Assembly: GCA_035540435.1 (NCBI GenBank)
Contig: DATLGQ010000003.1
Location: 1 to 27,656 of the forward strand
Direction of reading: 5' to 3'
DNA length: 27,656 bases
Source: Fimbriimonadaceae bacterium
Lineage (GTDB): Bacteria; Armatimonadota; Fimbriimonadia; Fimbriimonadales; Fimbriimonadaceae
A program made the position numbers and the translations under genes. Positions 1 to 4,079 of this stretch are shown here, one piece after another; within the stretch, counting starts at the first letter, position 1, and each line of letters begins with the position of its first letter. The notes below the pieces were generated by a model that had not been told where the DNA came from, searched no databases, and saw nothing but the letters and a program-made list of their open reading frames with translations.

Positions 1-37
1 ATCGTTCGCCGTGCGGTGGCGGCTTCCCTACCCAGCG

Positions 38-1051
38 TCAGGAACGGCTCACGCCGAGGATCGGCGCCAGGAACTGGCCGGTGTGGCTGCCGGTCACCGT
101 GGCGACGTGCTCGGGCGTGCCCTCGGCCACGACCGTGCCGCCGCCGGAGCCGCCCTCGGGGCCGAGGTCGATGATCCAGTCGGCGGTCTTGATCACGTCG
201 AGGTTGTGCTCGATGACCAGCACCGTGTTGCCCTGGTCCACCAGGCGGTGCAGGACCTGGAGCAGGCGGCGCACATCCGAGAAGTGCAACCCCGTCGTGG
301 GCTCGTCGAGGATGTAGATGGTGCGGCCGGTGGATCGTTTGGAGAGTTCGGCGGCGAGCTTGATGCGCTGGGCCTCGCCGCCAGAGAGGGTGGTCGCCGG
401 CTGGCCGAGCTTGATGTAGCCGAGGCCGACCTCTTCGAGGGTGGTGAGCTTGCGGTGGATCTTGGGGATGGGCTGGAAGAAGGCGACCGCCTCCTCGATC
501 GTCATCTCGAGGACGTCGGTGATGGACTTGCCCTTGTACTTGACCTCGAGGGTCTCGCGGTTGTATCGCTTGCCCTTGCACACCTCGCATGGGACGTAGA
601 CGTCCGGGAGGAAGTGCATCTCGATTTTTATGATGCCGTCCCCCTTGCACGCCTCGCACCGCCCGCCCTTGACGTTGAAGCTGAAGCGGCCGGACTTGTA
701 GCCGCGCATCTTCGCGTCGGGCGTCATGGCGTAGAGGTCGCGGATCATGTCGAACGTGCCGGTGTAGGTGGCTGGGTTGCTTCTTGGGGTTCGTCCGATG
801 GGGGATTGATCGATGTCGATGACCTTGTCGAGTGTCTCGTGCCCTTCGAGGGCGTCGTGGGGTTCCCAGACTCCTCTTGTGCCGTAGACCTCGTACATGA
901 GGCGGGGGAAGAGGGTGTCCTGAACGAGGGTGGACTTGCCGCTGCCCGATACGCCGGTGACGCAGACGAACAGGCCGAGGGGGATGGCCACATCGACCCC
1001 CTGGAGGTTGTTGCCGCGCGCGTTCTTGAGGATCAGCCAGCCTTCAGACAC
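38..1051 (-). CDS. uvrA: Excinuclease ABC subunit A, C-terminal ABC module only (337 aa; N-terminal ~600 aa of a normal UvrA absent here)
   Basis: Starts at the NBD2 boundary ([12 protein letters not shown]). Walker [26 protein letters not shown], Zn-finger [14 protein letters not shown], signature [12 protein letters not shown], Walker [18 protein letters not shown]. In-frame TGA upstream at 1118-1120. Confidence 0.92.
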
Positions 1052-1060
1052 GTGGACAGG

Positions 1061-1066
1061 AGGATA
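1061..1066 (-). promoter_or_regulatory. Putative -10 element (ggTATCCT), 9 nt upstream of the uvrA-C GTG start
   Basis: Minus strand reads aaaaggTATCCTcctgtccacGTG. Same ggTANNNT pattern as upstream of fdxA and the 12341 gene. No Shine-Dalgarno at normal spacing. Confidence 0.45.
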
Positions 1067-1222
1067 CCTTTTCGGGTGTTTGTGGTGGGCGCTCCCTGGA
1101 GATCTCTCACCCGCCGCTCACTTCGCGCACGCCTGCCTCCAACGGGTTCGGGTGTTCGGTGTTGTATGTTGCAGGGCTGAAGTCAGTCTCGACATGCGGG
1201 TGGGATCGTCTAACTTAGCGCG

Positions 1223-2139
1223 ATGATTCGTAAACCGACCATCATGGCTCTTCTGGCCCTCGCGGCCCAAGCCTCTGCCGATTACTCACCGACCGCGGCC
1301 AAATGGAATGGCTGGACTGTGCAAACCGGCGAGGACCTGTATGGAGGTGCCCGCCACACGGGATATCCGATCTGGCAGATGTTCGACCGGAAGCCTCAGA
1401 CGGCGTGGGTATTCAGCGGGAAGTTCGCGAATCCTTATCCTGAGGAGGGCGGGCCGCCTTTACGTTCATTTGAGGCGCGTTATTGGCTGGAGTTGACGCC
1501 GGACAACCCGGTGCGGCTGGATGAGCTCCGGATCATGAACGGCTACAACAAGGACGGTCGCACCTTCGGCCGTAACAACCGCATCCTCGAGTTGGAGGTC
1601 GTCGCGTTTGGCCCAAAGTATGGGGACAGAAGCGCCTCGGCACATTCAAGCTGCCGGACCGGATGGGTTGGCACGTGATCAAGATCCCTGACCGCACCTA
1701 CCACCGCCTGAAGCTCGTGGTAAAGGGGATTGCAAGAGGCTCCGAACCTGACGTGGCGGTGTCGGAGCTGGATCCTGTACATAGAGGAAAGAGCAGGGGC
1801 CCTGGTCCCGCTCGTTACGTAACTTTTACTCAGGGCTCGGATTGTGGTTGCTCGACTGTTTGGGAACTGTTGGCCGCGAGCGGCCGTCGCCTGGCAGCCA
1901 CGGTCGACATGGCTGAGATCGTTTGGGACCCGCAGGGACGGTTCTTTGCTGGCGTTGAGAGCGCCGCGCCAGGCAACCGCTTGTGGGTGTTTGATTCCAC
2001 GCGTGGCCAATTCGTCCTGCGGAAGCCTGTTCCAGAGTCGGTATCGACGCCCTACTGGGCTGGAGACCGATTGTTCGAGTTCAAGCCGCAGAGCGGCGAA
2101 GAGCCGCCCCGGATGCTGTGGCGGGTTCCTCCACGTTAG
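1223..2139 (+). pseudogene. Secreted protein with discoidin-like (NADase-type glycan-binding-like) domain, split by a frameshift near 1600-1630
   Basis: Signal-peptide-like N-terminus and domain motifs MFDRKPQTAW and IMNGYNKD..TFGRNNRI..LEV in ORF 1223-1678. The domain continues in the other frame as GQKRLGTFKLPDRMGWHVIKIP...LKLVVKGIARGSEPDVAVSEL (ORF 1663-2139). One extra base around aaagtatggggacag would join them. Confidence 0.7.
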
Positions 2140-2285: not shown

Positions 2286-2429
2286 ATGGCCTACAAACTT
2301 TGGACACCCGAAGAGGACCAACAGCTGCGACGGGAGTTGGCCGAGAACCTCCCGATCGCCGCCATCGCGAAAGCCCACAACCGCCCACCGAGCGCCATTC
2401 GTTCCCGCTCACGCCGCCTCGCCCAATGA
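2286..2429 (+). CDS. Small (47 aa) Myb/GcrA-like helix-turn-helix protein
   Basis: MAYKLWTPEEDQQLRRELAENLPIAAIAKAHNRPPSAIRSRSRRLAQ: WT.EED..L motif followed by IA.IA..H.R...AIR helix-turn-helix. ATGA overlap with the next gene. ATG 2286 preferred over the GTG 2172 of the ORF track. Confidence 0.65.
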   Translation: MAYKLWTPEEDQQLRRELAENLPIAAIAKAHNRPPSAIRSRSRRLAQ

Positions 2430-3076
2430 TTTTCGCGCTCGACGAACGGGGACTTCGAGTCGAGGCCCGGAGGGGACTCAAGGCCAAGTGCCCGATTTGC
2501 GGCGCGCCCGTGCGAGCCAAATGCGGCGAAGTGCGAGTCTGGCACTGGGCCCACGAGCAGCAGATCGACTGCGATCCCTGGGGCGAGCACGAGTCCGAGT
2601 GGCATCGAGGATGGAAGGCGCTCGCGCCTCTGGAGAGAGTTGAGGTTACGATGGGGCCCCATCGCGCCGACATCGTCGCCACGGACGGCGCCGTCATCGA
2701 GTTGCAATACTCCAGCATCTCGCCTCAGGAGATTCGCGAGCGCGAGGCACATTACGGGCGCATGGTTTGGCTGCTCAACGGCGGCGCGTTCCGCGGCAAG
2801 TTTCGGGTGGAACTGCTCGCAAGTGGCGCCCAATTCGACTGGGCCCACGCGCGCGTGTCGTGGCGGGCGGCGCGCCGCGGCGTGTTCATCCACGGCTACG
2901 AGATCGGGCGCTACCTCCAGATCGTGGACCCCAAGAGCGGCGGCCTCAACCGCATCTGGCGGGCGGCAGCCTGGAGCGACGACATCTTTCAAGTTAAGTC
3001 ACTGGAGCGCAGACGCTTCGCCGGATGCGGGCGACAGATCCCCAAGTCCGCCTTCATCGACCGGTTGATCGGCTAG
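2426..3076 (+). CDS. CoiA-family protein (Zn finger plus PD-(D/E)XK-type nuclease domain)
   Basis: CPICG..V.AKCGEVRVWHWAH zinc finger, ESEWH, HRADIV and VIELQYS (D...ExQ) nuclease motifs. Start re-assigned to ATG 2426 because of the ATGA overlap. Confidence 0.85.
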   Translation: MIFALDERGLRVEARRGLKAKCPICGAPVRAKCGEVRVWHWAHEQQIDCDPWGEHESEWHRGWKALAPLERVEVTMGPHRADIVATDGAVIELQYSSISPQEIREREAHYGRMVWLLNGGAFRGKFRVELLASGAQFDWAHARVSWRAARRGVFIHGYEIGRYLQIVDPKSGGLNRIWRAAAWSDDIFQVKSLERRRFAGCGRQIPKSAFIDRLIG

Positions 3077-3123: not shown

Positions 3124-3372
3124 GTGCCCTACGTCGTCACCGAACCCTGCATCGGCGTTAAGGACAAGTCCTGCATGACCGTATGTCCGGTCGATTGCAT
3201 CTACGAAGGCGACGACATGGTCTTCATCAATCCAGACGAGTGCATCGACTGCGGATTGTGCGAGCCCGAATGCCCGGTGACGGCGATTTTCGTGGACACC
3301 GACGTGCCCGGCAACTGGAAGGACTACATCGAGAAGAACGCGGTCAAGGGCCGCGAACTGTCCGGCGGCTAG
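3124..3372 (+). CDS. fdxA: 7Fe ([3Fe-4S]/[4Fe-4S]) ferredoxin
   Basis: MPYVVTEPCIGVKDKSCMTVCPVDCI...INPDECIDCGLCEPECPVTAIF, the typical FdxA cysteine pattern. Start GTG 3124. Confidence 0.92.
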   Translation: MPYVVTEPCIGVKDKSCMTVCPVDCIYEGDDMVFINPDECIDCGLCEPECPVTAIFVDTDVPGNWKDYIEKNAVKGRELSGG

Positions 3373-4079
3373 CGCTTTCCGATCACGAACATGGTGCTCA
3401 GCTTGCGCTGGGGCGGTACCACGAGCGAGCCGTTGTAGTAGAGGCAGGTCGAGCCGCCTCCATCCAAGCTGACCGCTTCTTGAACGCCCTTTTGCTTCAT
3501 GGCCTTTCCCAACTCGCTCAAGGTCACCTGGTTCTTGGTGGCGACCAGCACGAGCTTGCCCTGCTTGGTGATGCCGACACCGGTACGCGCGGCCCGACCC
3601 CAGATCCGCTTGTCCTTGAACTTCTGGGCCTTGGGATTCGGCTGCACCTTGCCCTTCTGGATAACCCGCACCGCGCCACGAAGGGCGAACTGGTAGCTGG
3701 ACCAATCCACCTTCTGCTGGAACTTGGGGTCGAAGATCTTCACGCCGCCAAACCAGTCGACTGCGACGACGCTGCCCCGATGTCCCCTCGCGACCAAGTT
3801 GCCGTCGACCAGCACATCGGCGACGGGCCGGTGGCTGCTCGGGGCGAAGAAGGTGCCGGTGATCGCGGCGACCGGCTGCTTTTGCTTGACCAGGTTCCAC
3901 ACCGAGGTGAGCCGCGGGCTGTGAACCGTCGCCGGCTGGAGCGCGCCAGACCGCAGATCGGCCGTGACGACATGGTAGCGGTTCGGGCCCCACTTGAACG
4001 TCTCGTACCCGATGGGCGAGAACGTGGACTGACTATTCGCAATTGCGGCAGCAACTAAAACAACCGGCGCAAGCGCCAT
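3369..4079 (-). CDS. Secreted phosphodiester glycosidase family protein (NAGPA/DUF2233-like)
   Basis: Signal peptide; AAITGTFF, AARTGVG and SLDGGGST motifs; SD gggag upstream of ATG. Confidence 0.85.
   Translation of the reverse strand: MALAPVVLVAAAIANSQSTFSPIGYETFKWGPNRYHVVTADLRSGALQPATVHSPRLTSVWNLVKQKQPVAAITGTFFAPSSHRPVADVLVDGNLVARGHRGSVVAVDWFGGVKIFDPKFQQKVDWSSYQFALRGAVRVIQKGKVQPNPKAQKFKDKRIWGRAARTGVGITKQGKLVLVATKNQVTLSELGKAMKQKGVQEAVSLDGGGSTCLYYNGSLVVPPQRKLSTMFVIGKR

Follow-up and report, generated by a model that had tools for sequence, protein, structure and literature searches.

The DNA-repair protein UvrA is normally a single chain with two tandem ATP-binding cassette (ABC) ATPase modules, whose two ATP sites differ in damage finding and in UvrB loading. 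As references for class I UvrA (~940-960 aa) we take the solved structures from Geobacillus stearothermophilus (2R6F/3UWX), Thermotoga maritima (3PIH) and Mycobacterium tuberculosis (3ZQJ), together with 9GXK. In ABC proteins at large the two nucleotide-binding domains may stand on one chain or on two, as in full and half ABC transporters, and every ATP site combines the Walker A of one module with the other module's signature. Myles and Sancar, in Biochemistry in 1991, are said to have separated Escherichia coli UvrA in the laboratory into its N- and C-terminal domains at the inter-module linker. A full-text search of open-access papers and preprints returned no published description of a natural two-gene UvrA, and the genome paper of Fimbriimonas ginsengisoli counts nucleotide excision repair among the functions present without naming uvrA (PMC4072686). 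Here we describe what is very likely such a system in a soil and water bacterium of the Fimbriimonadaceae (GCA_035540435.1), a placement with which the names of its close homologues agree. The stretch analysed, hereafter the window, comprises the 27,656 nucleotides of contig DATLGQ010000003.1, which is the whole of contig C3 of a metagenome-assembled genome (MAG) of 2.6 Mb, 419 contigs and 63% G+C, 82% complete and 4.5% contaminated.

The open reading frame (ORF) at 38..1051 is, in our assessment, very likely the gene for the C-terminal subunit of a naturally split, two-gene UvrA typical of Fimbriimonadaceae (C-half, its partner being the N-half), and the two genes, both intact and conserved, most likely make a working two-chain repair protein. 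The ORF matches positions 614-941 of the 943 of the NCBIfam UvrA equivalog profile NF001503 with 618 bits, and positions 611-924 of TIGR00630, and its product shares 78-86% identity with those of C-half genes in 18 other genera. The Walker A, signature and Walker B motifs and the four cysteines of the third zinc module (Table 1), as well as the H-loop residue H282, are invariant in the 19 genera compared. Extending the frame to the upstream TGA at 1120..1118 adds 22 codons and just two or three further aligned residues, and the DNA past 1120 holds unrelated plus-strand ORFs, such as that at 1223..1678. The 3' end of the gene lies 37 nucleotides from the end of contig C3, and the break at its N-terminal side is internal: another 26.6 kb of the contig lie past it.

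A search of the whole genome with NF001503 gave two strong matches, one on contig C209 (3606-5441, profile 3-612, 879 bits) and one in the window (C3:56-1048, profile 611-941, 617 bits); no full-length uvrA was found by this search and, apart from the two halves, nothing scored above 41 bits. The gene on C209 encodes a 637-aa N-half, whose stop codon lies inside the 8.4-kb contig and whose downstream neighbour is a convergent, glycoside-hydrolase-like gene. It carries the UvrB-interaction domain (UvrA_inter, PF17760) at 132-238 and the insertion, DNA-binding domain (UvrA_DNA-bind, PF17755) at 292-403. When aligned with 2R6F, the N-half covers residues 21-626 and the C-half residues 629-958, which places the cut at 626|629 (630|632 in 9GXK numbering). 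The cut is clean, in the short linker joining the two ABC modules, and the halves are exactly complementary. Neither chain exceeds the curated NF001503 cut-off for UvrA of 1147 bits by itself (618 for the C-half and 879 for the N-half), and the two scores together (879+617 bits) come close to the 1490-1550 bits of full-length relatives. With the two genes added, all domain-level features of class I UvrA are present (both ABC modules, the zinc modules, and the UvrB-binding and insertion domains), and what differs is the single chain. The genome also has the partner genes, a whole uvrB (C34, 1023 bits) and a whole uvrC (C111, 590 bits summed).

These results bear out the main proposal of a first-pass annotation, made from the letters of the window, and every checked detail of its description. 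It had described the ORF as a conserved UvrA running from the second ABC module to the C-terminus with its motifs intact, had placed the break in the linker between the modules, had pointed to the in-frame stop 22 codons upstream and the unrelated genes beyond it as signs that the break is no effect of the contig edge, and had noted a -10-like box 9 nucleotides before the GTG start; all of this was confirmed, and the position of the box was found conserved in 18 other genera. The unlinked N-half that it proposed to look for was recovered in this genome and in relatives. Of the two arrangements it offered, separately encoded halves or use of the C-half alone, the former agrees with the complementary N-half on C209 and the latter is not supported, given that all 32 of the near-complete split genomes described below have at least two UvrA matches.

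Compared with canonical class I UvrA, the two genes summed provide the same two ABC modules, three zinc modules, and UvrB-binding and insertion domains. They differ in being two genes, unlinked here and each with its own promoter, in a P-x-S-P-x-P extension gained by the N-half, often followed by a Lys/Arg-rich tail, and in the new Met-Ser with which the C-half starts. The site of the cut is the hinge at which the E. coli laboratory construct was divided, and the ATPase halves would be expected to fold on their own, as they reportedly do there; unlike that construct, the present cut is natural, apparently old, conserved, and probably reversed by re-fusion in some lineages. As in full and half ABC transporters, two ABC modules would pair head to tail into two composite ATP sites whether linked or not, this being, however, a soluble DNA-repair ABC protein.

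In this genome the last 25 residues of the N-half form a basic tail without homology (C209, L011:1432-1506, minus strand; labels such as C209, L011, G052 and f4 are our own for contigs, loci, genomes and families). Many other N-halves have tails of 10-45 residues after a conserved RRxPxSPxP; their sequences differ and nearly all are Lys/Arg-rich at the end, which is not expected from chance read-through in 63% G+C DNA. A similar Lys-rich stretch occurs in fused uvrA genes with long linkers, and the role of the tail is perhaps DNA contact.

The split is not a peculiarity of this genome. The same cut (profile position 610-613) was found in 20 of 25 genus-level representatives of Fimbriimonadaceae, at most 38 of the 175 species-level genomes of the family exceed the UvrA cut-off, and about 40 genera share the split. 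Of the 39 family genomes with a completeness of at least 97%, here called near-complete, 32 gave two or more UvrA matches and seven a single full-length gene; every listed near-complete genome without a full-length gene contains exactly one N-half and one C-half. When 13 cases of neighbouring halves in one frame were opened, a stop was found between the halves in six. Five one-contig genomes (G009, G012, G054, G181 and G052) are all split, with the same cut, start codon and promoter, and G052 is the isolate genome of the cultured type strain F. ginsengisoli Gsoil 348, whose AIE84232.1 (378 aa, named 'excinuclease ABC, A subunit') is the C-half. In that strain the N-half maps to 912318-914225 and the C-half to 920033-921022. 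Elsewhere NCBI names such half genes 'ATP-binding cassette domain-containing protein' or 'hypothetical protein'. With halves that fall below the cut-off and carry such names, automated surveys would score most Fimbriimonadaceae as lacking UvrA. Judging by conservation, the natural two-gene UvrA is a real and expressed-looking variant of a well-known protein, and with a cultured type strain carrying the split it offers a ready system for labelling, mutating and titrating each half separately.

Two other forms of UvrA were seen in the family. F. ginsengisoli has in addition a 798-aa UvrA paralog (C1:2687444-2689312, profile 267-659 and 686-939) without the UvrB-binding region. G153 and G154, 1.5-Mb genomes of genus g50 (L103), have a single 883-aa uvrA ORF that seemingly lacks part of the N-half region at ~290-400 and appears to be a shortened one-chain form.

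The arrangement of uvrA varies widely within the family. There are canonical full-length genes with short linkers (e.g. G014 and G041), full-length genes whose linkers have 10-50 extra residues, halves that are adjacent in one frame and separated by a stop (G172 and G072), halves on one strand 0.5-34 kb apart, inverted adjacent halves (G007), and unlinked halves as in the present genome. In G172 the TAGAAT box of the C-half begins with the TAG stop of the N-half; 9 nucleotides and then the C-half ATG follow the box, in the same frame; the same TAG stop was present in five of the 20 N-half ends inspected. All split lineages start the C-half at one position, with MSxGW, and have in common the -10 box and its 9-nucleotide spacer, the GTCYAC motif described below and the P-x-S-P-x-P extension. 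In an RpoB tree, from which the RpoB of this MAG was left out after showing an implausibly long branch in two tree runs, full-length genomes fall inside split clades behind well-supported branches, and the state requires five changes, at least four of them forced. The approximately unbiased (AU) test on this tree rejects a single split clade (p = 4e-44), and the UvrA tree agrees (p = 0.015). Within one genus, split and full-length genes are mutual closest relatives with 85-88% identity.

Given this common start, promoter geometry and extension, and the TAG stop found in several split lineages, the gene probably broke once, long ago, and was re-fused at least three or four times, the halves being scattered by later rearrangements. 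That the cut instead arose many times independently, with the full-length genes ancestral rather than re-fused, is unlikely, and would alter the history only. It would account for the alternation of full-length and split genes on the RpoB tree and the rejection of one clade, for the several full-length genes with short, outgroup-like linkers and no trace of a former junction, and it finds a parallel in the linker expansions common elsewhere in the phylum. It would also demand that the start, MSxGW, the spacing of the -10 box, GTCYAC, the extension and the TAG stops all recurred, and the fused genes of genus g38 keep V[T/M]LSPKW at the place where split genes have VH-MSxGW. With one old fission and later re-fusion, the family displays each stage: the long linker, the stop doubling as a -10 box, adjacent, inverted and unlinked halves, and re-fused genes.

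Outside the family, the cut at 611 was not found in the genomes searched. The candidates examined there were explained by long inserts or linkers within a single ORF (f30, f8 and f35), by one frameshift (G288) or by contig fragments. In f30 the inter-module linker has insertions of 25-70 residues and in f8 and f35 some 45-70 residues are inserted near profile position 430-450, in each case within one ORF (L139-L156), and the frameshift in G288 lies in the first ABC module. In f4, a sister family within the same order, uvrA is cut elsewhere, at profile position 244/245 directly behind the UvrB-binding domain (PF17760, 132-238), and this cut too is conserved. It was seen in G027, G030, G033, G037 and G039 (L068-L072, L034-L038), while G035 has a full-length gene. 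The f4 pieces are unlinked, with an N piece of 248-266 aa and a C piece of roughly 700 aa, the latter preceded by a TATAAT/TATACT box 4-8 nucleotides before its ATG.

The C-half has a conserved -10 box of its own. In the window, TATCCT (1066..1061) is followed by CCTGTCCAC and then by the GTG at 1051, and in the 18 other genera a TAnnnT box, often after TG or G, stands exactly 9 nucleotides before the start. The start codon occupies one position in all 19 genera and the protein opens with Met-Ser-x-Gly-Trp. Across this genome, TAnnnT is enriched ~6-fold at 6 nucleotides and ~3-fold at 9 nucleotides before the first start codons of long ORFs, and the Shine-Dalgarno signal is weak, which suggests that leaderless or near-leaderless transcripts are common in this organism; uvrB has a TAGAAT 8 nucleotides before its ATG. 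Given a -10 box fixed 9 nucleotides from the start, the mRNA of the C-half is probably leaderless or nearly so. The similarity of the C-half to its relatives ends ~33 nucleotides upstream of the start, and tblastx found no synteny with the flanks of relatives' uvrA loci past about position 1084, a genome of the same genus included. No trace of the rearrangement that separated the halves in this genome was found by this comparison, and the short conserved block with its non-syntenic flanks suggests that promoter plus ORF acts as a self-contained movable unit. To judge further from the range of arrangements in the family, genes may split more easily where a -10 box plus a start codon is all that is required, as in initiation of the leaderless type.

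A second conserved element lies between the -10 box and the C-half start, where GTC[C/T]AC is present in 15 of the 19 genera and one-base variants in three more. In the lexA promoters of the family, GTAGAC closely follows the -35 box, and many of them also have GTCTAC 2 nucleotides after the -10 box (GTAGAC-N18-GTCTAC; L162, L165-L193). GTCTAC (or GTAGAC) is likewise found ~10 nucleotides before the -10 box in the promoters of N-half genes and of full-length uvrA genes, in this and sister families. A relaxed scan for a 16-nucleotide palindrome returned mostly chance matches and only scans tied to the -10 box were informative; in these the motif is rare in the present genome (10 and 16 sites), and besides lexA and the uvrA halves its sites precede a radical-SAM SPL-like gene, a Y-family polymerase gene and a DinB-family gene. 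Contigs C133, C401, C342 and C404 carry sites of this candidate motif. To our knowledge no LexA motif has been described for Armatimonadota. The distribution suggests that GTAGAC/GTCTAC is a candidate SOS box for Fimbriimonadaceae and that both halves may be under joint SOS-type control, in which one repressor would act on both genes and so match their amounts. A further reading makes the split itself a regulatory device rather than a neutral accident, with separate damage-responsive promoters that gate assembly or set the stoichiometry of the sensor, possibly a DNA role of the C-half's own, and switching between split and fused states under selection that shifts between two ways of running nucleotide excision repair; we regard it as improbable.

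As each composite ATP site takes its Walker A and its signature from different modules, neither half of UvrA is complete alone. A model of the N-half and C-half in complex, each chain given as an alignment, reached an interface score (ipSAE) of 0.64, against 0.00 for the best of three controls, a value that may owe something to memory of solved UvrA structures; in calibration, the mark for this score was reached by 58 of 80 solved complexes and two of 110 mismatched pairs. At least 83% of the contacts were common to three model runs, and the predicted local confidence (pLDDT) of the partner was at least 82. In the modelled interface the Walker A region of each chain meets the signature region of the other, and N-half residues 603-619, which comprise the linker strand and the family-specific P-x-S-P-x-P extension, lie on the C-half and touch the invariant Trp5. 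The model supports the pairing of the two chains. Damage-specific DNA binding, dimer formation and UvrB loading would be the expected activities of a two-chain UvrA.

Under the two-chain reading, fission in the short linker would have left the first nucleotide-binding domain, the UvrB-binding domain, the insertion domain and the linker strand on the N-half, and the second nucleotide-binding domain and third zinc module on the C-half. The two chains would associate head to tail as the modules do in one-chain UvrA, rebuilding both composite ATP sites, and two such N:C pairs would form the usual UvrA dimer, which would load UvrB. If such a UvrA is conserved in nature, the two modules may well do without a covalent link.

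Some UvrA paralogs serve other purposes, for instance in drug resistance, and the C-half could in principle work alone or with another partner, for example as a homodimeric zinc-finger ABC ATPase like those drug-resistance paralogs. Its own promoter, its independent movement in the genome and the 798-aa paralog of F. ginsengisoli fit this idea, which we nevertheless judge improbable: in near-complete genomes the C-half never occurs without the N-half, it is as close to canonical UvrA as full-length relatives are, each ATP site of an ABC protein draws on two modules, and the several lineages that fused the halves back into one ORF imply that the halves work together.

Both halves are conserved throughout. 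Mean column identity across genera reaches 70% in the N-half and 75% in the C-half, with every catalytic and zinc residue invariant, and the median pairwise ratio of nonsynonymous to synonymous substitution rates (dN/dS) is 0.15 for the N-half and 0.12 for the C-half, values that are rough upper-range estimates since dS is saturated between genera. The comparison indicates that both halves are under purifying selection. Neither contains stops or frameshifts, and the lost constraint and patchy presence of a pseudogene were not seen. A uvrA recently broken by rearrangement, whose pieces decay as non-functional pseudogenes, could explain why the halves are unlinked here with non-syntenic flanks and why the N-half ends in a non-homologous tail; it is highly improbable for genes that keep their key residues across genera with saturated synonymous sites, with dN/dS of ~0.12-0.15, a split found in about 40 genera and a dedicated conserved promoter. 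The first-pass annotation had named mis-assembly, a full-length copy elsewhere, relatives devoid of the half gene and neutral evolution as outcomes that would undo its proposal; closed genomes, the profile search, conservation in the family and dN/dS spoke against each of them.

Two explanations remain that are scarcely credible. A chimeric join at ~1052, or two organisms binned together, might be suspected of a gene at the very end of a contig in a MAG of 419 contigs and 4.5% contamination, and is rejected by breaks internal to both contigs and by the same cut in five one-contig genomes and the F. ginsengisoli isolate. Restoration of a single polypeptide by a split intein, a trans-spliced group II intron or ribosomal read-through or bypass has an almost negligible probability: a few genomes (G172 and G072) do have adjacent halves in one frame with a stop between, but in many others one half is inverted relative to its partner, lies far from it or sits on another replicon. 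An intein would have no room either, as some N-halves end directly behind the linker and MSxGW opens every C-half. Pfam detected no intein or Hint domain in either half and Rfam no intron or ribozyme beside either, so that intein or intron trans-splicing was rejected.

Several observations weigh against a two-gene UvrA under the promoters and joint control described above. The split state is not fixed, since the family, and even single genera, include full-length genes. With the MAG 82% complete and 4.5% contaminated, unassembled DNA of this organism could conceivably contain a full-length copy, which the closed genomes of relatives exclude for those relatives. The model of the complex expresses likeness, not binding, and may recall solved UvrA structures. 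The -10 box in the window is weak (TATCCT, 4/6) and has no -35 box, a simple sigma-70 consensus scan of 1..1600 called no promoter, and the start codon used here, GTG, initiates leaderless mRNA poorly in model bacteria. Finally, the motif copy at the C-half, GTCCAC, is one base off the GTCTAC of lexA, and no clear copy was found at recA or uvrB of this genome.

Table 1. Features of the C-half gene of uvrA and its upstream region in the window.
Feature	Position	Strand	Remarks
uvrA C-half gene, 337 aa	38..1051	-	GTG start 1051..1049, TGA stop 40..38; second ABC module, third zinc module and C-terminus
Walker B, ILDEP, residues 247-251	299..313	-	Read from sequence; invariant in 19 genera
ABC signature, LSGGE, residues 222-226	374..388	-	Read from sequence; invariant in 19 genera
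Third zinc module, C132, C135, C155 and C158	578..658	-	Read from sequence; all four Cys invariant in 19 genera
Walker A of the second nucleotide-binding domain, GVSGSGKST, residues 33-41 (G33-T41)	929..955	-	Read from sequence; invariant in 19 genera
GTCCAC, candidate operator half-site (GTCYAC)	1052..1057	-	Between -10 box and start; overlaps the conserved promoter; shared with lexA and N-half promoters
-10-type hexamer, TATCCT	1061..1066	-	9 nucleotides before the start codon
In-frame TGA	1118..1120	-	Closes the frame 22 codons before the start; open frame 359 aa against 337 aa for the ORF
Unrelated divergent gene, 151 aa	1223..1678	+	Signal-peptide-like N-terminus; occupies the place of the N-half in an unsplit uvrA

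Near the C-half, the window also encodes a CoiA-like protein (PF25164 and PF06054, weak matches) at 2300-3076 on the plus strand and a phosphodiester glycosidase (NAGPA, PF09992) at 3369-4079 on the minus strand, neither with an evident link to the split. On C209, upstream of the N-half, lies a cobalamin riboswitch-like match (RF00174, L011:4657-4799, minus strand), with 29.8 bits, slightly below the gathering score of 31.5.

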